DNA from: Candidatus Heimdallarchaeota archaeon
GTDB taxonomy: Archaea; Asgardarchaeota; Heimdallarchaeia; Hodarchaeales; Hodarchaeaceae
Reading direction: 5' to 3'
DNA: 64,000 nt
NCBI GenBank assembly: GCA_020353515.1
Contig: CP070695.1
Location: 2,822,539-2,886,538 of the forward strand
Shown: positions 1,067 through 48,262 of the stretch, piece after piece
Position numbering within the stretch: the stretch's first letter is position 1
How the letters are laid out: every line of letters begins with the position of its first letter
Made by a program: the position numbers and the translations under genes
The notes under the pieces: generated by a model
What the model was told of the DNA's origin: nothing
Databases searched by the model: none
The model's input: the letters and a program-made list of their open reading frames with translations, nothing else

Positions 1067-1171
1067 GGCATCATAGCTCAGTTAGGTAGAGCGTCCGGCT
1101 GTTAATTTGTATCTCTTAAAGATTACGATACAGATACCGGGTGGTCGCAGGTTCAAGTCCTGCTGGTGCCG
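1067..1171 (+). tRNA. tRNA-Asn(GTT) with canonical 37/38 intron (1105-1135)
   Basis: Acceptor GGCATCA/TGGTGCC+G, anticodon CT-GTT-A, T-arm GCAGG-TTCAAGT-CCTGC; CTGT/ACAG central helix of a relaxed BHB motif. Confidence 0.93.
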
Positions 1172-3278: not shown

Positions 3279-4820
3279 ATGGCTTATCAACGCAAAACGT
3301 GGAAAAAGTTTATGAAAACAATATTATCCCAGATTTCTGTCTATATTGAAAATTATTCCCCTTCAGATCAGATCATACTCAATGAATTCATTTCTATTCT
3401 ACAAAATTACGAAGTTGATACCCAAGAAGCCCGTCGTCATCTTTTTCAACTTTTTGAGAGTTTCCAGACCAAATATCGTGACAGTGAGAAGTTATTAACT
3501 CAACCTTTCCTGTGGTTTGTTGAGAGTTATTTCACAAACGCCTCTAAATTACTGAGTGTTGCTAGTTTTCATGCGGATGATTTTTATGAATATTTCGTAA
3601 AGCAGCTCCGTGGTTATCCAGACATAGAGGGAGTCTTTAAACTACTTCAGAAAGGAACACCATTAACAGATCTCAGATGGGAACAGCTTCAATATGCTTG
3701 TAATCGTCTTAGCGTTCCTCTCAAAAGCGAGGAACTTCATGCTCTTGAAACAGTACACAATCTATCTCTGGAAACAGGAATAAATGCTCTAGATCAAAGG
3801 TACATAAAGACTAATATATTTAACAATGTAAAATCACCTACTCTCTTAAAAAAGATAGAAAATCTCTTTCTAAGATTAGATTCTAGATGGCTCCTTCGGT
3901 TTTATACCCCTGCATTTGACTTGGAGCTACTATTTTTTCAGTTTCAATTAAATAAATCGACTTCTTTGAGAGAAATTATTGATTTTCAAAATCCAAATAA
4001 CACCACTCTATGCAATAGTAGTGTCTATTGGATAAGGGGTTTCCGAAATATGTATTGTGGAATTTTAGTTGTACCTACAAGTTCTATTCTTTCCTTACAA
4101 AGATATTTACAAAGATGTCACCGTCAAGGTCAAATAGTTCTCTATGAGTTGACAAAAATCATTACTTCTCGATTAAGTGTTTCATTGCTACTCTATCAGA
4201 CTACTAAAGGGTGGCGTACTCCAACCCAAACAGATTGGAACAGGTTAGTTCCAATGTTAAAAACTCTGTACCCACGTAAAATGCGCATGAAACTTACATC
4301 TTTTTACTTAACACCCCCATTTAATGAGCTTAAGCTTGATCATCATGATTCCTCTCAACTAATTAGTCTTTTTTGCAAAATTCCTAGACAATTTTCATTT
4401 AAAGAATTACCATTAGGCGCAAATGAAGATCAAATACAGTTCGAACTATCTAAAGCTGATATTAAGCTATTAGAGGAAATATGTCTTCGAAAAATTGTGC
4501 AAATCAGTTTTATTTCTACAAGATTAATCTATGAGTTTTCCCTGGACAATTATTGGATAAAACTTCCCAAAATGCCTCTCAATCAACTTTCAAGGTTATT
4601 GGCTTGGATTCCTTTTTGTCGTCTTTATTTTGCAGAAAAAAATATTTTTATTTGGTCTTATTTAACTCAAGAGTTGGCCCAATGGTTAAGTACAGATCTT
4701 GAATGGACTGTTATGCGAATTATAGAAAATCATACCCCCTTAAGTTTTAGTTTTAATTGGTACACTTCCAAATCTCAACAGTGGAAAACACCTCTCATTT
4801 TAACCACCGAGAGGCAATAA
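3279..4820 (+). CDS. Uncharacterised ~510-aa family protein, copy 1 (putative peptide-associated regulator)
   Basis: Full-length similarity to 11688-13220 and 44021-45562 (PFLWF, ASFH..FY.Y, WEQLQ, FYTPAFDL, WKTPLIL). Confidence 0.85.
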   Translation: MAYQRKTWKKFMKTILSQISVYIENYSPSDQIILNEFISILQNYEVDTQEARRHLFQLFESFQTKYRDSEKLLTQPFLWFVESYFTNASKLLSVASFHADDFYEYFVKQLRGYPDIEGVFKLLQKGTPLTDLRWEQLQYACNRLSVPLKSEELHALETVHNLSLETGINALDQRYIKTNIFNNVKSPTLLKKIENLFLRLDSRWLLRFYTPAFDLELLFFQFQLNKSTSLREIIDFQNPNNTTLCNSSVYWIRGFRNMYCGILVVPTSSILSLQRYLQRCHRQGQIVLYELTKIITSRLSVSLLLYQTTKGWRTPTQTDWNRLVPMLKTLYPRKMRMKLTSFYLTPPFNELKLDHHDSSQLISLFCKIPRQFSFKELPLGANEDQIQFELSKADIKLLEEICLRKIVQISFISTRLIYEFSLDNYWIKLPKMPLNQLSRLLAWIPFCRLYFAEKNIFIWSYLTQELAQWLSTDLEWTVMRIIENHTPLSFSFNWYTSKSQQWKTPLILTTERQ

Positions 4821-4912: not shown

Positions 4913-4951
4913 CTATTGATCTGGGCCAATGCCGCCAGGAGGAGGGGACAC
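4913..4951 (-). CDS. Tiny proline-rich peptide 1, MSPPPGGIGPDQ (12 aa, GTG start)
   Basis: Minus strand GAGGT-taaaatt-GTG TCC CCT CCT CCT GGC GGC ATT GGC CCA GAT CAA TAG; same position relative to the paralog as peptides 2 and 3. Confidence 0.7.
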   Translation of the reverse strand: MSPPPGGIGPDQ

Positions 4952-5054: not shown

Positions 5055-7235
5055 TTACAGATGAGTTTCAGTTGGATCAAAGACCAGATTTTGATAAGAT
5101 TCACGTAATCGTTTCTGTTGAGGAATATCTTGAAGTGTAGTAATATCCATTGAGGATGATGGATCAACAGGGAAATTGTGGGTCTTCATAAGAGAAATTT
5201 GACCGTTGATTGAGAGTAAACAACGTCGCTCATCAGGGTTTGCTTTTAATAAATCACGAAATTTCTCATAGTCAGTTTTAGATATACCAAGTAAGTTAGA
5301 TATGACATAAGGATCAAATTTGGTAAAGAAAACAGCCAAAACGCCTGTATTTGTTAATATAGGCTGCTCAACAATCGGATCAGTACCAATGAATATCATT
5401 GATATATCATAAGCCCGTAAGGTCCAAGGACCCTTTGCAATCATTGACTCTGGAGTCCTAGATGGGTAACTTCTAGCAGGAATGAGTTTTTGAATCTCAT
5501 CGAGAACAAATATATTCTTTGGAAGGCTACCCTCCTTGAAAGGTGATCGAAAGCTTCGAACAAAATAGTAAATGTATTGCAGGATAACATCTAGAAAGAT
5601 TTGTCTTCCTCTTTGGTCTTCCATTGACTCAAACGCTGAAAGGTCAATGATTCCATTCTGATCTAATAATTGGGATAATTCAAAAGTTGTTTTGTGAACA
5701 GTAAAACATCTGCCTGTATTACCAAAGAAGAGTTTTTCAATACGATTCAGAATACCTGCAGCGGTGTTATCGAGATAGGCGCCTTTCATTCCTAATTCAT
5801 GGGGCATGTTAAGGCAATTAAGAAATGTCTGAAAATCCCCCTGATCTTTCACAGTTTGAATGACCGCCAGATGAAGAAGACGACGCATTTGGGGCGAAAT
5901 CGCATCTGAATCTTCAAATGTATGTTCAAGAAGAGACACAACAAATTGAATATGATCCTCTATTGGTATAATGCTGTCTCCGTGTTCATTCTTGGGAATT
6001 TGGAAGATATTTATCCCCCAAGGAAATGTAGTAGAACCAGGTTTCAAATAAATTAAATCCTTACAAAAAGATTTAATTGGAGCTAAGTATTCACCTTTGG
6101 GATCAAAAATAAGGAATTTTACGCCCTTTAGGAGAAATTCCTTGATTAATCCATATACAAAACGACTTTTTCCCTCACCAGTCATACCAAAAACAGCCAT
6201 ATGTCTACTTAGATTCTTACCATCAATTAGAAGAGGAACATCTGAGGTCTTACCGCTAATAATAGGAATGCCAAGATTAATGGCTTGTAGAGGTGCTGTA
6301 CTATTAATACCAGAAGATAACATATAATCTTCTTTATTTGGGACAAGAGTGTAACCTTCATATGAGAATTGTCGTTGAGGAGGGGAAATTAGACTCATCA
6401 ATGAATAACCATCTAAAATCGTAGGAGAAGTTTGTTTTCGTTTTACACAGAGATTTCTAAGGGAAGAAAATCGATGCCAAAAAGTCGGATAGATACACAC
6501 TTTGAATCCATTAGAGATTAATAGAACTGATAATCTATCAAGTTTTAATTGTAGAGCCTTTAGGCTGTTTTCTACAATTATAACTCGCGGTGAGAATTTG
6601 AAACAACCAGTTTCTTCCATAATATTTTTTCTTTGAGGATGAAAACGACGTTCTACTTTTCCTTGTTGAATATCAAATCGAACTTGAGTCAAATGATTTT
6701 CTTGTCTTTTATTTGTCTGATATTCCTTCGGAAGTTTAACAGGTTCGAAAATCAATTGTACAAACGCAAATTGGGGAGATTCTGTTAAAATTTCAAGAAA
6801 ATCATCTGAAAAACCGTCAGCTGTTGTAATGGGTTGATCAATTTTATTTTCTAATCCTATTATTCCTCCACAATAGTATTTGGGACCACCTGAACCTAAT
6901 TGAAACCTGGGCCGAAGCATTTTTAGTATACTTTGAATAGGAGTTTCTCCTATCTTATGGTAATCAGGATGAAGCCCAAGTTTTGTTGCAAATTGTTGGA
7001 TAGTTGCGATTCCTCTTTCAATTCCTTTTTTACGGAACCACTCTTGTGGAAGAGGAATCATCTTGATCCAGACAGTTTTCGGATCAAAAATCGCATATTC
7101 TAATGAAAAAGCTTGTTTAGCATTTTGAAAAACCTTAATGCTAGATTTATCTGCTTTCAGAGGAACCTGGTCAAAATTAAAGGCAGGGATATTCTCAATC
7201 ATCAGAAACACATCTTCGTAGTATCTCCCCAACAA
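5055..7235 (-). CDS. HerA/VirB4-like P-loop ATPase (DUF87-type)
   Basis: RHMAVFGMTGEGKS Walker A, FLIFDPKGEY, FVLDEIQ Walker B. Confidence 0.85.
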   Translation of the reverse strand: MLGRYYEDVFLMIENIPAFNFDQVPLKADKSSIKVFQNAKQAFSLEYAIFDPKTVWIKMIPLPQEWFRKKGIERGIATIQQFATKLGLHPDYHKIGETPIQSILKMLRPRFQLGSGGPKYYCGGIIGLENKIDQPITTADGFSDDFLEILTESPQFAFVQLIFEPVKLPKEYQTNKRQENHLTQVRFDIQQGKVERRFHPQRKNIMEETGCFKFSPRVIIVENSLKALQLKLDRLSVLLISNGFKVCIYPTFWHRFSSLRNLCVKRKQTSPTILDGYSLMSLISPPQRQFSYEGYTLVPNKEDYMLSSGINSTAPLQAINLGIPIISGKTSDVPLLIDGKNLSRHMAVFGMTGEGKSRFVYGLIKEFLLKGVKFLIFDPKGEYLAPIKSFCKDLIYLKPGSTTFPWGINIFQIPKNEHGDSIIPIEDHIQFVVSLLEHTFEDSDAISPQMRRLLHLAVIQTVKDQGDFQTFLNCLNMPHELGMKGAYLDNTAAGILNRIEKLFFGNTGRCFTVHKTTFELSQLLDQNGIIDLSAFESMEDQRGRQIFLDVILQYIYYFVRSFRSPFKEGSLPKNIFVLDEIQKLIPARSYPSRTPESMIAKGPWTLRAYDISMIFIGTDPIVEQPILTNTGVLAVFFTKFDPYVISNLLGISKTDYEKFRDLLKANPDERRCLLSINGQISLMKTHNFPVDPSSSMDITTLQDIPQQKRLRESYQNLVFDPTETHL

Positions 7236-11427: not shown

Positions 11428-11687
11428 TAGCGACTCAGAAGAAAATTACCTTTTTATGGACCATTTCAATAATTTTGAGATAGGTTATGAAAGAGTTTTG
11501 GATGAATCACAGTAATTACCTAAAAAAAAAATTCACAATTCAATAGATCTATTGAAGGCTTTATAAAGGATTTTTAAGGATAAAAATATTTATAAAAGAA
11601 ATCATATTGAACACCAATAGATCCATTTGAAAAGCCTAATTTCTAGTCTGAACAATTCGAAATGACAATTTAGGGGTAGTTCTCATC

Positions 11688-13220
11688 ATGATTAATGATG
11701 TACCTCAAGGACGTGACAGTTTGAAACGGATTATTCAGACCGTAATCGACTACCTCCCAGAAATCATAAAAAATTACCCTCCGAAGGATCAACTTCTTCT
11801 TAATGATTTTCTATCTGTTCTTCAACATTATTCAGAAGCAGATAATCAGCGAGAAAGACTTTCAAAGCGTTTTGAATTGTATCGAAGTAAAAATTATTTA
11901 ACTGATCTATATTTTCAACTCCCCTTTCTGTGGTTTGCTCACGATTATTTTGCAAATGCAAATCTCATCCTTAATCTCGCTGAATTCCATGGAACACGAT
12001 TTTATGAATATTTAGCTCGTTCTTTACGTCGTAATCCTGATGTACAAGGAGTTTTCCCACTCCTACGTCAGATGACTCCTCTTTCAGACCCCAAATGGGA
12101 ACAGCTTCAGATAATCCAAGCTCGGATTAAAATTCAATTAACTGATGAGCAATTACAGATAATAAAAGAGAGTTATACTGCTCTTCGCGAACTTGGAATC
12201 CAAGGTTTAAATAGTCGGGTTTTGTACAATTTTGTTAAAAAAAGCGATATTTCACTAAATACTAAATCTCTTTCCAAATTTTTCACATTACTTGATTCTC
12301 AATGGAACATTTGGTTTTATCCACCCGCATTTGGCTTAAAACAACTATATTTTAACTTTAAATTGACTAAAACCTCTTTAAATGAAATTTTCGATTTTAA
12401 AGACAGTTTTAATACTACATTGTGTAATAGTCGGGTGTATCGCAGTAGAAATTTTCCAAACCAATTTTCTGGGTATTTAGAAATTCCACATGAAGGATTA
12501 AATGATTTAGTGGATTACATTCAGAATTATGCTGATCAAGGGAACCTGAAAATTTTCGAATTATCCGAAGTAACTGACCTTCGAGTAAGTGCCTCGTTTA
12601 ATCTTTATCATTCAGGGGTAGGATGGACTGAAATCCTTCCAGGAGGAATAAAAAGATCAATTCTACCATTAAAAAGCAATCACCCACGAAAACTTCTAAA
12701 CGAAAAGCCTTTTTTCCTTTCTCCTGCCTTTAATCATGAATGGAACTTCTTACAGTCTCCTGATCCCAGACGATCCATACGTATTTTTTGTCAATATAAA
12801 CCCCAAATCTACAATTTTAATGCCCTGCAATTCGGTTCTGCCTCAAATCAAAGAGTATTCATGGAGGATTTTGGTTTGATAAAATATTTTCATCGAAAAA
12901 TGGTTTGTACAAATTTGATCTTTATGGCCAACTTGATCTATAATTTCTCACCTGACTTCTATGAAATAGTTATGCCTATCATCCCAATTGAACGTCTAAA
13001 TTTAATATTAGCATGGCTCCCATACTCACGTATTCTCTTTACAACGAAAAAAATCCATTTATGGACCTTTTTGCCAACACAAATATTAGAGTGGATGAAA
13101 AAAGAATTTTCTTCCTGGGAGTTTCGCCTATGTATATCACATCATTATTCTCCAGAACCAGATCCGTCATGGTTCGATTTTGACTCGTTAAAATGGTTAC
13201 TCCCCCGAATTTTATCATAA
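11688..13220 (+). CDS. Uncharacterised ~510-aa family protein, copy 2
   Basis: Paralog of 3279-4820 and 44021-45562 (PFLWF, AEFH, WEQLQ, FYPPAFGL, WLLPRIL). Confidence 0.85.
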   Translation: MINDVPQGRDSLKRIIQTVIDYLPEIIKNYPPKDQLLLNDFLSVLQHYSEADNQRERLSKRFELYRSKNYLTDLYFQLPFLWFAHDYFANANLILNLAEFHGTRFYEYLARSLRRNPDVQGVFPLLRQMTPLSDPKWEQLQIIQARIKIQLTDEQLQIIKESYTALRELGIQGLNSRVLYNFVKKSDISLNTKSLSKFFTLLDSQWNIWFYPPAFGLKQLYFNFKLTKTSLNEIFDFKDSFNTTLCNSRVYRSRNFPNQFSGYLEIPHEGLNDLVDYIQNYADQGNLKIFELSEVTDLRVSASFNLYHSGVGWTEILPGGIKRSILPLKSNHPRKLLNEKPFFLSPAFNHEWNFLQSPDPRRSIRIFCQYKPQIYNFNALQFGSASNQRVFMEDFGLIKYFHRKMVCTNLIFMANLIYNFSPDFYEIVMPIIPIERLNLILAWLPYSRILFTTKKIHLWTFLPTQILEWMKKEFSSWEFRLCISHHYSPEPDPSWFDFDSLKWLLPRILS

Positions 13221-13237
13221 AACCATCTTTCAAATTC

Positions 13238-13256
13238 AAAAAAAGAAAGGAAAGAG
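13238..13256 (-). terminator. T-rich tract downstream of peptide ORF 2
   Basis: Minus strand CTCTTTCCTTTCTTTTTTT. Confidence 0.45.
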
Positions 13257-13305
13257 TAATCCTGATTTTATAATCAAGATTATTGATCTTCATTCAATTC
13301 AACAT

Positions 13306-13335
13306 TTAAGGTTGTAATGGCTCATTTGGGGGCAT
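13306..13335 (-). CDS. Tiny proline-rich peptide 2, MPPNEPLQP (9 aa)
   Basis: Minus strand GGGTGAGGT-catagaag-ATG CCC CCA AAT GAG CCA TTA CAA CCT TAA. Confidence 0.7.
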   Translation of the reverse strand: MPPNEPLQP

Positions 13336-13567
13336 CTTCTATGACCTCACCCTTCTAAGCAACCGATCAACTTTTAATCACATGAAAAAAAACTAGAGAA
13401 AGTCTTTGATATTCATCTCACCCCAATCGGTTATAATATCACCCAGCTTTCTAAAGAGATAATTGAAAATGACGAATCTGGTTATTACATTCTAGATTTA
13501 ACTGCATATAGTACTTCTAATATAAAAAAACCCCAAAATGCATTCATACTATTGGGGAATTTGTAGT

Positions 13568-13960
13568 TCATTCTGGAAGTAGAGGGAGTAGAAGGGAAAG
13601 GTAAATACCTTGAGCCACTAAAGAAATGATTAAAGCGAAAAAGAAGCTTAATAGAGTCCCAATAAGATAATATTCCGCAAATTGGCGTTCTTCTAATTGT
13701 TTAAATCGAGCCATGGATTTCGCGACGAAAACAAAGGAAATAGCACCAAATTCTCCCAGTAAACCCAGTGTCAGGATAATTCCTCTTTCTAACATACCAA
13801 TTATTTTTCCTGCACCAGGTAAACCTTTTTCGGATGAAGTTTCAAGGGAAATCCTAAGAGATTTCAAGAATAACTCTACAAAAAGTCCGCCAACAACAAT
13901 AGCAATGAAATACACACAAATATAATAACCACAGAGAAGTAGTAACGGTACCCAGCTCAT
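13568..13960 (-). CDS. SatD-associated membrane protein (DUF3307-like)
   Basis: GKIIGMLER, AKSMARF, EYYLIGTLLS motifs; coupled to the SatD gene. Confidence 0.75.
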   Translation of the reverse strand: MSWVPLLLLCGYYICVYFIAIVVGGLFVELFLKSLRISLETSSEKGLPGAGKIIGMLERGIILTLGLLGEFGAISFVFVAKSMARFKQLEERQFAEYYLIGTLLSFFFALIISLVAQGIYLSLLLPLLPE

Positions 13961-14583
13961 TAGAGATCATCCTTAAAATATACGAAAAAAGTATTTGTTA
14001 AGTCATTCAGCGTTTCAATGGCTAAGAAAACAGCTTTCGACTGTGTGTATTTAAGAATTTTGGAGACTGCTTGCTTACTTATCCCTTTCTTAATTCCAAT
14101 TTCTTTCAAGGTCATTCCTTCCTGTCTAAGATAAATAATCTCTCGTTGGTGAGCATTCCATCTAGTTTTAGTTGCATATAACAACGTTAAGAGAGTGTTC
14201 ACCATCCTATCGAAATGTGTATTCCCAGATTGAATCCAAGCAGAGTAATGCCCTTTCTTTGCGATGTTGAGCGCTTCTTGGGAGCGATGAAATGCTAAGC
14301 CATCCATTTCCAAGGTATTTGGAGAGAATTCGGTAGAAATTTCCCCAATTCCCACTCCACATCGAAAATCAATGGAAATCAGCTGCTCAAACGTGTCTAA
14401 AATGTTGTAGAATCCATCAAGGGATTTCAATGCCCCCTGAAAGGAATCACCCCATACTGTAGTAAAAGGGCATAAAAGTTCATTTGGGTATTTCTCATTG
14501 ACGACATTCACCGCATTCTTTAATTCTTGTTGAACTTTAAATCTTTCTTGAACTTTTTTAGAATGAATAAGATCACAGGTCAT
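13960..14583 (-). CDS. satD: SatD family protein with C-terminal HTH
   Basis: GDSFQG, RCGVGIGEI, MDGLAFHRS, C-terminal EIG..GISKQAVSK. Confidence 0.85.
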   Translation of the reverse strand: MTCDLIHSKKVQERFKVQQELKNAVNVVNEKYPNELLCPFTTVWGDSFQGALKSLDGFYNILDTFEQLISIDFRCGVGIGEISTEFSPNTLEMDGLAFHRSQEALNIAKKGHYSAWIQSGNTHFDRMVNTLLTLLYATKTRWNAHQREIIYLRQEGMTLKEIGIKKGISKQAVSKILKYTQSKAVFLAIETLNDLTNTFFVYFKDDL

Positions 14584-42734: not shown

Positions 42735-43484
42735 ATGCGCAACTTAATTGATCAACTATCTTATGAATTATTAAAAGAATTCCAAAACAATCCCCAAAAT
42801 ACGTTTCAAAACTTAAATGCCATCATAACAAACACTGCAACCTTAACAACCCGATTAAAGCAATTAATAACACTGGAAGTATTAGAAAAAAGGAAAAGAA
42901 TATATAAACTGACAACAAAAGGGAGAAAGCTCATTGGTCTCCTAGATGAAGCCAGCCAACTTCTCAAAATGCCAAGAAAAGCGCCTAATCCATTCGAAAG
43001 GATTCCAAATACTCATATTATCGAATTATTGGAAGACTATGCGTTTTTACTCAAAAAACATTTCAAGGAAGCCCTCCTGTGTGTCTTCTTATTTGGATCA
43101 TGTGCTCGAGGAAACTGGAACGAGGAGAGTGATATTGATCTGTTGATCATTGTGAAAGACTGGGAGATTCCCTCCTGGGAAAAATCTCGGGAACTAATTG
43201 AGGTGAAGAAAAAACTACGAAGACGTGATTCATATAAAAATCTAAGACGAAAAAGGTATTACTTTCCCTTATCACACTATCCGCTGTCAGATACTGAATG
43301 TAAAAGATTTCATCCAGTATTCTATGATATCGTACTCGATGGAATCATTCTCTATGAGCAAAACCAATTCGGAACCCACCTCCTCAAACAGTACCAAAAA
43401 GAACTAGAACAGCAGAAGGCGAAACGGATAACAAAACCAAACAAAACGAGGTATTGGAGAATTGAAAAAGGACAAGGTGCCTGA
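42735..43484 (+). CDS. Winged-helix + minimal nucleotidyltransferase (MNT antitoxin)
   Basis: N-terminal TLTTRLKQL..YKLTTKG; LFGSCARG..SDIDL. Confidence 0.9.
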   Translation: MRNLIDQLSYELLKEFQNNPQNTFQNLNAIITNTATLTTRLKQLITLEVLEKRKRIYKLTTKGRKLIGLLDEASQLLKMPRKAPNPFERIPNTHIIELLEDYAFLLKKHFKEALLCVFLFGSCARGNWNEESDIDLLIIVKDWEIPSWEKSRELIEVKKKLRRRDSYKNLRRKRYYFPLSHYPLSDTECKRFHPVFYDIVLDGIILYEQNQFGTHLLKQYQKELEQQKAKRITKPNKTRYWRIEKGQGA

Positions 43485-43887
43485 AAGATCGCAACTGGCA
43501 TTAAAACGAGCACAAAACTGGCTTCAGAGCGCCCAAAGAGGGAAAGAAGATCAACGCTGGGATGATTGTGTCTATAATGCCCAAATGGCCGCAGAACAAG
43601 CAATAAAAGCGCTATTCTTAAAACTAGGGATCTATTACAAACGAATTCATGACGTCTCAGACACTTTTAGACAAATGACAGAGAAGGAGGATCTCCCAAA
43701 AACCTTTCGGGAGCAAATCCCAAAGATCGCAGATCGAATGGAAGAACTAACAGAACAACGAAATCTGGCAGGGTATGGGTTCGAGGAGGGAATTAATCCA
43801 GATTATTTCCAAGAGTATGCACCAATTGCCTTAGAGTGGGCAACAGACATCGTAAGGACGGTTAGGAAGGTCTTACAAAACCTTTGA
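43462..43887 (+). CDS. HEPN domain protein
   Basis: AQMAAEQAIKA, KRIHD; overlaps the MNT gene. Confidence 0.9.
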   Translation: MKKDKVPERSQLALKRAQNWLQSAQRGKEDQRWDDCVYNAQMAAEQAIKALFLKLGIYYKRIHDVSDTFRQMTEKEDLPKTFREQIPKIADRMEELTEQRNLAGYGFEEGINPDYFQEYAPIALEWATDIVRTVRKVLQNL

Positions 43888-44020: not shown

Positions 44021-45562
44021 GTGGGTACTCTCCATGAAAAATATTTACAATCGATCCAGACGATCTTAAACCGAGTTACCCCGTATATTGCAAAGTATCC
44101 ACCAAGTGAGCAAGCGTTTCTCACAGAATTCTTTTCTGTTCTTGAAACCTGTGAAGTGAGCACCTCAGAAAAACGAAAAATGTTTTCTCAACTCGTAGAT
44201 GATTTTATTAAAAGAAATTATGCTAAAAATACCTATATTAGTCTCCCCTTCATGTGGTTTGCCGTTGATTATCTAAGTACCGCAAACCGAATATTAAGTG
44301 TGGCTGAATTCCATCCAAACGAATTCTATCTATATCTTGTTCAACATTTAAGAAAGAATTTGGATACCCAAGGAATTTTCAGGTTGATACAAGCAAAGAC
44401 ACCCCTAACAAGCCTCACTTGGGAGACCCTCCAGTATGCATGCAATAAATTCACAGTCCCACTAACATCAGATGAGGTTCAAACAATAAGAATCATATCT
44501 TCTCATGTCGCTACTGCAGGGATACGGGCATTAAGTCAGCACAGCTTGAAAAAAAGCATTACTCGTCATGTGAAAACACCTAGATTCTCTCAAAAGCTAT
44601 CCAACTTCTTGAAATTTTTAAACGCACAATGGACCGTAATATTTTATCCTCCTACAATTGGTTTAGAGCGCTTATACTTCTATTTCAAGCTCAGGAAAAC
44701 ACTTTCAATATCCCAAATTCTAGGATATCGGGATTCAAAGAATATGAGTTTGAGAGGGTCAAATATTTATCGAATAGGTAATTCTCAGACCTATTGGGGA
44801 TTTCTCCTCATTCCTAGCAGGGATTTAGAAGCCATGAAAAACTATCTAAAGCACAGCGAGGAAGAAGGACGAATGATTCTTCTTGATCTTGCTAGAGTTG
44901 TTGAAATCCAAATATCACAATCAATGACATTATATCAAGAGGAAAAAGGCTGGCGCGATTTGACATTACGTGAGCAACGCAGGATAAATCGTCAATTAAG
45001 GGATGGAATACCTCCCGAAAATCATGATGAGACCCCAACTTTTCTTATTTCACCACCATTTGATAGAGATTGGCATTTTAACCGAAATTATAAACAAATA
45101 GCCAAGATTATCGATCTCTATTGTAAAGCCGTCCCATCGTTTTCTTTCTCAGAGCTGGCTTCAAGATTATACGCAAAACAAAGTAATTTTAGATTTTCCA
45201 AAGAAGAATTACAGTTGATCGCTTATTTATATCACAAAAAAGTTCTCCAATGCGATTTTAATCCAATTCGGTTAATAAGCGACTTTTCACTAGATAGGTT
45301 TTCTGTTCAAATCCCAAAAACCATGAAACTCAAGCATTTAGAAATACTACTAAGTTACTTACCTAGAGCCCGTGTTTTTACAACTGAAACTGGTATTCAA
45401 ATGTGGACAGTACTGACTCCTGATCTCGTACATTTGCTGGTTCAGGATTTAGAATGGACAGTGCAACCTATAAATACTCAATATTACGGAATCTCCCCTG
45501 AAAAGAGCTGGTTCGATTTTCAGGCCTGTGAATGGAAAACACCACAAATACTATCTAAATGA
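44021..45562 (+). CDS. Uncharacterised ~510-aa family protein, copy 3
   Basis: Paralog of copies 1 and 2 (PFMWF, AEFH, WETLQYACN, FYPPTIGL, WKTPQIL); GGTGGA SD. Confidence 0.85.
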   Translation: MGTLHEKYLQSIQTILNRVTPYIAKYPPSEQAFLTEFFSVLETCEVSTSEKRKMFSQLVDDFIKRNYAKNTYISLPFMWFAVDYLSTANRILSVAEFHPNEFYLYLVQHLRKNLDTQGIFRLIQAKTPLTSLTWETLQYACNKFTVPLTSDEVQTIRIISSHVATAGIRALSQHSLKKSITRHVKTPRFSQKLSNFLKFLNAQWTVIFYPPTIGLERLYFYFKLRKTLSISQILGYRDSKNMSLRGSNIYRIGNSQTYWGFLLIPSRDLEAMKNYLKHSEEEGRMILLDLARVVEIQISQSMTLYQEEKGWRDLTLREQRRINRQLRDGIPPENHDETPTFLISPPFDRDWHFNRNYKQIAKIIDLYCKAVPSFSFSELASRLYAKQSNFRFSKEELQLIAYLYHKKVLQCDFNPIRLISDFSLDRFSVQIPKTMKLKHLEILLSYLPRARVFTTETGIQMWTVLTPDLVHLLVQDLEWTVQPINTQYYGISPEKSWFDFQACEWKTPQILSK

Positions 45563-45614: not shown

Positions 45615-45650
45615 TTACCAACCAGGGCCAGGTTCTTGAGGGGGCATCAT
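45615..45650 (-). CDS. Tiny proline-rich peptide 3, MMPPQEPGPGW (11 aa)
   Basis: Minus strand GAGGT-cgaaagaa-ATG ATG CCC CCT CAA GAA CCT GGC CCT GGT TGG TAA; an upstream in-frame ATG (45665) would add MRSKE. Confidence 0.72.
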   Translation of the reverse strand: MMPPQEPGPGW

Positions 45651-45684
45651 TTCTTTCGACCTCATCCCCCTATTTCGTACCCTG

Positions 45685-45692
45685 TTTATAAA
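45685..45692 (-). promoter_or_regulatory. TATA box for peptide 3
   Basis: TTTATAAA about 20 nt upstream of the SD. Confidence 0.55.
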
Positions 45693-47785: not shown

Positions 47786-48262
47786 TTACAATCGAGTAAG
47801 AAATTTTTCTTTGAAGTCAGGATCATTTGGATTCAAAATTGGTACAATTCCTAAATTACCACGAAAATCGCTATCAAAAGTTATAAATAATGTAACCTGG
47901 GAAGCTAGAGCAATAGCTGCATGTAACGCGTCAGCTGCGTAAAGATTGTGGTCAAAAATTTGTTTTCGGGACACCATGATAGCAGATCGTGTTACAGGGA
48001 TAATTTTTAGTACTTCTTCTTCAGCCATTTCTCCAAGTTCAGACAGGAAGAAATCCAGAGCTATCTTTGCAGCTTTTTCTTCAATCTTTTCAAGATTGAC
48101 TTGTTTTTTTAAAGCAAGAAACATTTCAAGGATTGTCCATTCACAAGTAACCCCCTGAAACTTAGGAGTCAATTGATTGAGTATCCAGTCTGCAAGAGCG
48201 TTATTTTCAACAGGACAGTATGCGTTATAAAAAATATTTGTATCTAAGTACACCCCCATCAT
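47786..48262 (-). CDS. vapC: PIN-domain toxin (VapC-like)
   Basis: YLDTN, TILE, DALHAAIA, TFD. Confidence 0.9.
   Translation of the reverse strand: MMGVYLDTNIFYNAYCPVENNALADWILNQLTPKFQGVTCEWTILEMFLALKKQVNLEKIEEKAAKIALDFFLSELGEMAEEEVLKIIPVTRSAIMVSRKQIFDHNLYAADALHAAIALASQVTLFITFDSDFRGNLGIVPILNPNDPDFKEKFLTRL

Follow-up and report, generated by a model that had tools for sequence, protein, structure and literature searches.

A proline-rich micro-gene facing a predicted double-Lrp-type protein in a Hodarchaeales genome

Can an open frame of nine codons be a gene, and if so, what might its product do? The question is raised by positions 13238-13380 of a 64,000-nucleotide stretch, hereafter the window, of Candidatus Heimdallarchaeota archaeon (NCBI GenBank assembly GCA_020353515.1, contig CP070695.1, positions 2,822,539 to 2,886,538), whose genome is a 4.94-Mb single contig of the Hodarchaeales (Asgard). 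Six-frame translation confirmed the peptide that a sequence-only reading had proposed here: the open reading frame (ORF), micro-ORF 2, occupies 13306..13335 of the minus strand and reads ATG CCC CCA AAT GAG CCA TTA CAA CCT TAA, encoding MPPNEPLQP. A Shine–Dalgarno (SD) element, GGGTGAGGTC (13343..13352, minus strand, core GAGGT at 13348..13344), lies 8 nt ahead of the ATG. The TATA-like box TTAAAAG (13371..13377, minus strand), 36-42 nt 5′ of the ATG, is a putative archaeal promoter, and a T7 run (13238..13244, minus strand), 61 nt past the micro-ORF stop, is a putative archaeal terminator. Since the span runs from the TATA-like box through GAGGT and the ORF to the T7 run, its coordinates delimit a complete promoter-to-terminator unit. 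The T7 run is 17 nt away from the stop codon of a convergent gene for a 510-aa protein (11688-13220). The stretch is a real, self-contained, stand-alone micro-gene, and the convergent gene proved to be its regular partner.

Searched against 1.8 billion proteins, the partner family profile yielded 188 representatives (50% clustering), and we analysed 77 family loci from 22 genomes and several metagenome contigs, a micro-ORF being defined as a convergent M-x(0-2)-PP frame of 7-16 aa within 260 nt of the gene stop. Such a frame was found at 59 of the 77 loci, 3-208 nt past the stop of the larger gene. Under identical criteria, only 21 of 1827 long ORFs of the host genome qualified (1.15%), 4 of the 21 being the family's own, and the two sets differed with a binomial P of ~5e-98. 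All four paralogs of the host genome have a micro-ORF, and SD-preceded Pro/Gly-rich micro-ORFs of such a type were found genome-wide only beside these paralogs. Among 83 genomes of the class, full-length matches to the partner family were present in 21 of 21 other species of the same genus and in 0 of 61 genomes elsewhere (E<=1e-10), and the copy number was 1-10 per genome. Loci of a single genus are not independent; the pairs used for the substitution ratios below were picked as separate cherries. A metagenome scan for close MPPNEP variants returned one match, on an unrelated, GC-richer contig and inside longer open frames, which was dismissed as chance.

The sequence-only reading had drawn its case for coding from a comparison with micro-ORF 3 (45615..45650, minus strand, starts at 45650 and 45647; ATG(ATG) CCC CCT CAA GAA CCT GGC CCT GGT TGG TAA, encoding (M)MPPQEPGPGW), which is preceded by an SD GAGGT at 45663..45659 and a TATA-like TTTATAAA at 45692..45685 on the same strand. 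The two loci, 32.3 kb apart, do share MPP-N/Q-EP with the codon differences CCA/CCT, GAG/GAA and CCA/CCT, and pairwise DNA alignment showed no likeness between them beyond SD-ATG-CCCCC. Two paralogs sharing six residues are weak evidence alone; the larger sample bore the coding constraint out. It comprised 60 distinct micro-ORF sequences of the form M-x(0-2)-P-P followed by a Pro/Gly/Asp-rich tail, with a modal length of 12 codons (12 codons in 26, 11 in 15, 10 in 9, 13 in 5, 9 in 3 and 16 in 2). The +1 frame from the same sites ran for 4-62 residues, compared to 9-16 in frame 0. In ungapped alignments anchored on Pro-Pro, the pooled ratio of non-synonymous to synonymous differences (pN/pS) was 0.49 over the whole ORF (bootstrap confidence interval (CI) 0.37-0.61; 20 phylogenetically separate sister pairs). 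The tail after Pro-Pro gave 0.58 (CI 0.45-0.73) in frame, compared to 1.02 and 1.04 in the shifted frames. Pro/Gly positions were very conserved (0.15), and positions at which at least one partner was not Pro/Gly showed mild constraint (0.70, CI 0.54-0.94). All these ratios are upper bounds, because synonymous sites are near saturation (pS ~0.5-0.6).

Loci L028 and L069 (MMPPGDRGNG(G)K) differ by six synonymous and no non-synonymous changes, with only about one position in three the same in their 60-nt flanks; the ORFs of L013 and L015 match exactly within diverged flanks; and Ser2 is retained across TCC, TCT and AGT codons. Pro (34%) and Gly (20%) lead the composition, Asp (6%) and the other residues of the set D/N/S/T/K follow, and hydrophobic residues are rare. 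Peptide similarity tracks the partner protein tree, the closest orthologues of MPPNEPLQP being MPPNEPTGQ (L058), MPPEEPTSQ (L055) and MMPPHDPIGPN (L002), and paralogs within one genome differ in their tails. We conclude from comparative sequence evidence that frame 0 is translated and that selection acts on the peptide sequence; the differing C-termini may be specificity determinants, as had been proposed. At locus L006 (JGI contig Ga0366829_1208958, 2405-2470) a C7 run stretches the frame to 27 aa, into the end of the partner gene. With one C fewer the same frame gives a typical 10-aa peptide, and the long version may stem from a fault in assembly, or the copy may be decaying or depend on a frameshift.

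Selection was also visible at the nucleotide level. The first Pro codon was CCC in 41 of 60 micro-ORFs (68%; window sites 13333-13328 and 45645-45640). The same codon makes up 15% of the proline codons used by the genome's long ORFs, and within the micro-ORFs themselves it fills 5 of 60 second Pro positions and 11 of 97 of the remaining ones. The bias places a CCC-C slippery context beside the start codon, a classic +1-slippery context in bacteria. Programmed +1 frameshifting at CCC-C was rejected, none of the 4-62-aa +1 products being conserved. The CCC bias indicates selection on the peptide and also on the decoding of the first codons, or on the C-run as RNA. Thus the earlier claim that conservation lies at the amino-acid level stood as far as the frame-specific pN/pS is concerned and needed amending for the shared MPP, which is conserved partly at codon or nucleotide level; the larger sample, in which nucleotide-level rather than codon-level conservation was to have spoken against coding, held signals of both kinds.

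At the RNA level, an Rfam scan of the whole window returned a tRNA only, and so no known RNA family at the micro-gene. Predicted folding gave a mean minimum free energy (MFE) z of -0.37 over 57 loci with no common stem, and pairing of the C-run with an upstream G-run, seen in just 25 of these 57 loci, was discarded as a conserved feature. This occasional pairing, together with the partial nucleotide-level conservation of the CCCCC string, would fit a chance or non-coding feature, such as a GC-rich motif of the DNA or RNA that is open by accident. The excess over the genome control, the frame-specific pN/pS, the length fixed in frame 0 only and the lack of an Rfam family or significant folding energy argue against such a feature, which we consider very improbable.

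Alignment of 57 loci on their Pro-Pro codons revealed a common A/T box with a G-rich stretch before it that resembles a B recognition element (BRE), 45-50 nt upstream, and frequently another G-rich element close to where the transcript is expected to begin. The sequence (AT)GAGGT was common to the aligned loci 6-9 nt before the start codon, and the SD was often doubled; an SD-like 5-mer preceded 46 of 58 micro-ORFs, compared to 13% of the genome's long ORFs. Most family micro-ORFs, relocated copies included, were followed after the stop by a pyrimidine tract ending in a T-run. From their sequence and placement, these elements would serve as promoter, ribosome-binding site and terminator. The relocated copies are found at three loci. 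L055 and L058 belong to the sister clade of the focal gene; here partner and micro-gene share a strand, the micro-gene being ~420 nt downstream and encoding peptides of 9 aa (MPPEEPTSQ in L055, MPPNEPTGQ in L058), the same length as the focal peptide; at L020 it lies on the same strand, 271 nt upstream. All three retain the SD and their own T-run, and a TATA-like box was seen in L055 and L058. That the unit stays intact in another position or orientation points to a trans-acting product and speaks against a purely cis, antisense or leader mechanism.

A cis-acting convergent-transcription or antisense device, in which the micro-gene transcript, or read-through from it modulated by translation of the micro-ORF, reaches across the 3′ end of the 510-aa gene, or the transcript of that gene runs over the micro-ORF, and so sets the level of one or both, would suit the tail-to-tail layout with its gaps of 3-208 nt in 59 loci, and also the plus strand of the focal locus, where no strong T-run was found between the stop of the 510-aa gene and micro-ORF 2. 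It is contradicted by the T-run of the micro-gene itself, which precedes the partner stop codon, and by the equally intact units at L055, L058 and L020, and it leaves the amino-acid selection unexplained; we therefore regard it as improbable. Eukaryotic upstream ORFs that sense eIF5A or polyamines (AZIN1 uCC with Pro-Pro-Trp; AdoMetDC MAGDIS) and bacterial arrest peptides are likewise very short; through Pro-Pro or a particular nascent sequence they pause the ribosome and report metabolic state. These act in cis on a downstream cistron, whereas in all three arrangements the Asgard micro-gene ends in a putative terminator of its own with no cistron behind it. It also differs from a leader-peptide attenuator, in which the micro-ORF lies ahead of the regulated cistron on one transcript, as 59 loci are convergent and the same-strand copies end in their own T-run.

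What, then, is the partner? The family had no match in Pfam, NCBIfam or PADLOC, and the HTH_24, HTH_AsnC-type and AsnC_trans_reg Pfam models gave nothing at E<=0.001, the best being AsnC_trans_reg2 at E 0.064 in one of nine members. An AlphaFold2 model of the focal partner (paralog 2), built with a 68-sequence alignment, reached a predicted local distance difference test score (pLDDT) of 93.4 and a predicted template modelling score (pTM) of 0.90. In an exhaustive structural search the siroheme decarboxylase NirDL (NirDL/AhbAB, 4czc_A), a fusion of two Lrp-like proteins, NirD and NirL, ranked first by a wide margin (Z 12.2, 269 residues, model 153-510; next 7.9), partner residues ~150-510 superposing on it as two helix-turn-helix (HTH) plus RAM-like modules in one chain. 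The Lrp regulator NMB0573 (2p5v) matched one module (Z 5.4 over 140 residues). ESM-Atlas neighbours with a template modelling (TM) score of 0.65-0.74 over residues 21-510 carry HTH_24/HTH_AsnC-type domains and are 400-700-aa archaeal clusters, mostly from Thor-, Bathy- and Heimdallarchaeota. Unlike Lrp/AsnC proteins (feast/famine regulatory proteins, FFRP), the partner has an extra N-terminal helical bundle of ~135 residues, of generic type in the model (residues 8-134), and no Pfam HTH_24/AsnC_trans_reg match. The confident model thus describes the partner as a helical bundle plus tandem Lrp/AsnC-like modules (HTH + RAM-like), with membership of the Lrp/AsnC superfamily, whose plan is an HTH followed by a beta-alpha-beta-beta-alpha-beta RAM domain, at the fold level only.

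RAM domains of Lrp/AsnC proteins are ligand-binding modules, and the HTH elements of the partner presumably bind DNA. The S9 prolyl oligopeptidase gene and paralog 2 are divergent, and in the promoter region that separates them a perfect 14-nt palindrome, CAATAGATCTATTG, and a copy with two mismatches (11541-11554 and 11615-11628) flank TATA-like boxes, and are a candidate operator. As a shared operator the palindrome was rejected, being absent from micro-gene promoters; so was the promoter word GGGWGHTTAWA, whose 24 occurrences in the genome are about the chance level.

Amino-acid-level selection, combined with co-diversification with a regulator fold of the ligand-binding type, makes a cognate ligand the simplest account. 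In the reading we favour, a trans-acting peptide with a paralog-specific tail would serve the double-Lrp protein next door as its cognate ligand or effector; we put it forward tentatively, at a little under an even chance. The strongly translated stand-alone micro-gene would supply the proline-rich MPPNEPLQP, which would bind the Lrp-type regulator encoded alongside. The peptide's Met-(x)-Pro-Pro head, invariant across the family, might provide a common handle as well as protection against aminopeptidases, its variable tail would select the paralog to be addressed, and the result would be several parallel peptide/regulator channels per genome. The peptide may act inside the cell or be exchanged between cells. 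A broader version, in which Asgard archaea use a peptide code of their own, made up of unprocessed proline-rich 9-16-residue cognate ligands for tandem Lrp-type regulators, as several orthogonal channels per cell that possibly reach between cells, is somewhat less likely still.

Several observations weigh against the peptide being a ligand. The ligands of Lrp/AsnC proteins known so far are amino acids, not peptides, and the nearest solved fold, NirDL, is an enzyme rather than a regulator. Twelve loci have an intact partner and no micro-ORF within ~800 nt (two basal clades of 4 and 6, L026 and L047; the flanks of L025 and L038 are too short to judge). At the basal-clade loci L061, L063-L068, L071 and L072 (genomes G049 and G052-G055) a convergent protein-coding gene abuts and no Pro-Pro micro-ORF lies within ~800 nt, the peptide gene having been either lost or located elsewhere. 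No operator common to the micro-gene promoter and the partner promoter was found. Exchange between cells is unsupported, since the neighbours examined include no conserved transporter and the peptides have no signal sequence. Finally, the CCC bias at the first Pro and the P/G/D-rich tail, made of the residues hardest for the ribosome to join, fit a role at the level of translation equally well.

Such a role would make the peptide a by-product. In a heavily loaded mini-ORF, a start-proximal Pro-Pro followed by Asp/Gly/Pro would stall ribosomes, and the micro-gene could be a CreT-like 'proline-codon' RNA toxin silenced by the adjacent DNA-binding protein, in an addiction or defence unit, or a sensor of aIF5A, tRNA-Pro or polyamine status. 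P, G and D are the residues most dependent on EF-P/eIF5A, and the tail is rich in them. The unusually frequent and often doubled SD and the first Pro codon, CCC in 41 of 60 compared to 15% genome-wide, would suit stalling too, as would the invariant Pro-Pro right after the start, although its position at residues 2-3, 3-4 or 4-5 in 60 of 60 follows from the way the search was built. With 1-10 copies per genome, the family is also full length in one genus only, clustered, and located near MNT/HEPN, PIN and HerA-like genes. A precedent comes from CreT in P. aeruginosa, which consists of an SD, ATG AAA CCT CCG, a stop and a hairpin, is toxic only with both Pro codons, and is silenced in the type I-F CreTA system by CreA-guided Cascade (bioRxiv 10.64898/2026.06.02.729485). 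The Asgard micro-genes resemble CreT and the rare-codon CreT/bar-minigene RNA toxins in being predicted small stand-alone transcripts with a strong SD, two Pro codons beside the start and, in this reading, a repressing partner.

The two also differ. CreT has four codons and stops right after Pro-Pro, whereas 6-13 further codons are under amino-acid-level selection in the Asgard ORFs, non-Pro/Gly positions included, and the total length is held at 9-16 codons. CreT needs a 3′ hairpin, and no consistent stabilising hairpin was predicted here. It belongs to a CRISPR-Cas locus, whereas the window contains no CRISPR-like array, the neighbours examined have no cas domains, and the Asgard partner is a 510-aa protein without a PADLOC match. 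Clades that lack a micro-ORF also retain intact partner genes, and antitoxins seldom behave in this way. A small, hydrophobic, membrane-active toxin of the type I toxin-antitoxin kind is not what the composition describes, with P at 34%, G at 20% and few hydrophobics. We judge a translation-level element to be unlikely, though the main contender to the cognate-ligand reading.

The other cassettes of the genome repeat the arrangement. Each of the three window micro-ORFs faces its own ~510-aa paralog tail to tail, and the three paralogs are 32-36% identical to one another. Paralog 1 (3279..4820, plus strand, 513 aa) faces micro-ORF 1 (4913..4951, minus strand; GTG TCC CCT CCT CCT GGC GGC ATT GGC CCA GAT CAA TAG, encoding MSPPPGGIGPDQ), which has a GTG start and whose peptide has the orthologues MSPPLRGAGPDQ, MSPPPGGTGPYQ and MSPPPGGPGPKE. 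Paralog 2 (11688..13220, plus strand, 510 aa), modelled above as an N-terminal helical bundle with tandem Lrp/AsnC-like modules, faces micro-ORF 2, and paralog 3 (44021..45562, plus strand, 513 aa; ~32% identical to paralog 2) faces micro-ORF 3. Paralog 4 (C1:325977-327515) is followed by MPPKDPGGIN. Copies are clustered, with three in 45 kb of the window and five in 42 kb on one contig of genome G066.

Around the partner genes nothing is conserved except the micro-gene. Neighbours of paralog 1 include a 619-aa protein and a HerA-like ATPase (5055-7235) with weak PADLOC HerA/mad8 matches, those of paralog 2 an S9 prolyl oligopeptidase, those of paralog 3 an MNT/HEPN pair directly upstream (42735-43887) and a PIN-domain gene (47786-48262), and those of paralog 4 an ERCC4-domain protein. 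This part of the window looks like a variable island rich in toxin-antitoxin or defence genes. The focal micro-gene is immediately preceded, on its own strand, by a gene for a 130-aa protein without Pfam hits (13568-13960, minus strand) and, further upstream, one for a SatD-family protein with a C-terminal sigma-70 region-4-like HTH (13960-14583, minus strand); neither showed any sign of belonging to the cassette. The one Rfam match mentioned above is a 105-nt tRNA at window 1067-1171 (plus strand, 56.9 bits), where ARAGORN reports none; it is probably an intron-containing archaeal tRNA.

The peptidase next to paralog 2 raises a further possibility, namely that the peptide is a substrate or scaffold which the partner itself, or an enzyme encoded close by (the S9 prolyl oligopeptidase, for instance), modifies or cleaves, in the manner of ribosomally synthesized and post-translationally modified peptides (RiPPs). 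In its favour, the best match of the partner among solved structures, NirDL, has enzymatic activity; RiPP recognition elements bind peptides through winged-helix domains; and the orthologous contig L004 carries S9 and M14 peptidases. Yet the partner revealed neither a catalytic domain nor a cofactor motif, RiPP precursors are normally longer and carry a leader, and peptidases are not a constant neighbour: the 619-aa protein beside paralog 1 shows no relationship to the S9 prolyl oligopeptidase, which excluded a peptidase as the conserved part, and paralogs 3 and 4 have other neighbours. We consider processing of this kind quite improbable, below even the cis-acting device.

If the peptide is a cognate ligand, its functionally nearest analogues would be the RRNPP, Rgg-SHP and arbitrium (AimR-AimP) cassettes of Bacillota and their phages. 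There, too, a short peptide gene is genetically coupled to a regulator-type protein of the cytoplasm, a genome carries many paralogous pairs with divergent peptides, and the active peptides of 5-10 aa are similar in size to the Asgard primary products. Such adjacency is seen in the Asgard set, with 59 of 77 loci convergent and 3 relocated, compared to 1.15% in the control. The receptors differ, being tetratricopeptide repeat (TPR) proteins that enclose the peptide in RRNPP systems and Lrp/AsnC-like here according to the model, and so does the peptide gene: instead of a pro-peptide that is exported, processed and taken up again, the Asgard products are made at final size, hydrophilic, Pro/Gly-rich, 9-16 aa long and without room for a signal peptide or pro-region. 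The mostly convergent layout and the archaeal host set the Asgard pairs further apart. Known ligands are amino acids for the Lrp/AsnC family and siroheme for NirDL, not ribosomal peptides, and we found no description in the literature of proline-rich micro-genes beside Lrp-type proteins in archaea.

The pairing probably predates the genus. When 400 Asgard genomes were searched with a profile at higher sensitivity, other genera yielded weak homologues of the first HTH-RAM module (E 1e-7 to 1e-10). Among them, proteins of 575-579 aa in another Asgard family (L092:639 and L096:616; genomes G100 and G101) have SD-preceded micro-ORFs encoding MHYPPTRPNPF and MWPPSRPEPF ~280 nt upstream on the same strand. 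It is these distant xPP micro-ORFs that make an association of xPP micro-genes with double-Lrp proteins probably older than the genus, and they suggest a wider Asgard superfamily of such pairs.

Genes of 9-13 codons are invisible to annotation pipelines, and here a whole family of them passes comparative tests for translation and selection. Should the micro-genes be stalling elements, the recently described 'proline-codon toxin' principle would extend to archaea, with a protein rather than CRISPR as the keeper. Should the peptides be ligands, a regulator fold that ranks among the most widespread in archaea would gain a new ligand class. No ribosomal peptide would have been known before as a ligand of the Lrp/AsnC fold, and no peptide/receptor signalling family in archaea. 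The closest prokaryotic relatives of eukaryotes would then possess a peptide-based regulatory or signalling system that evolved independently of the bacterial RRNPP systems.

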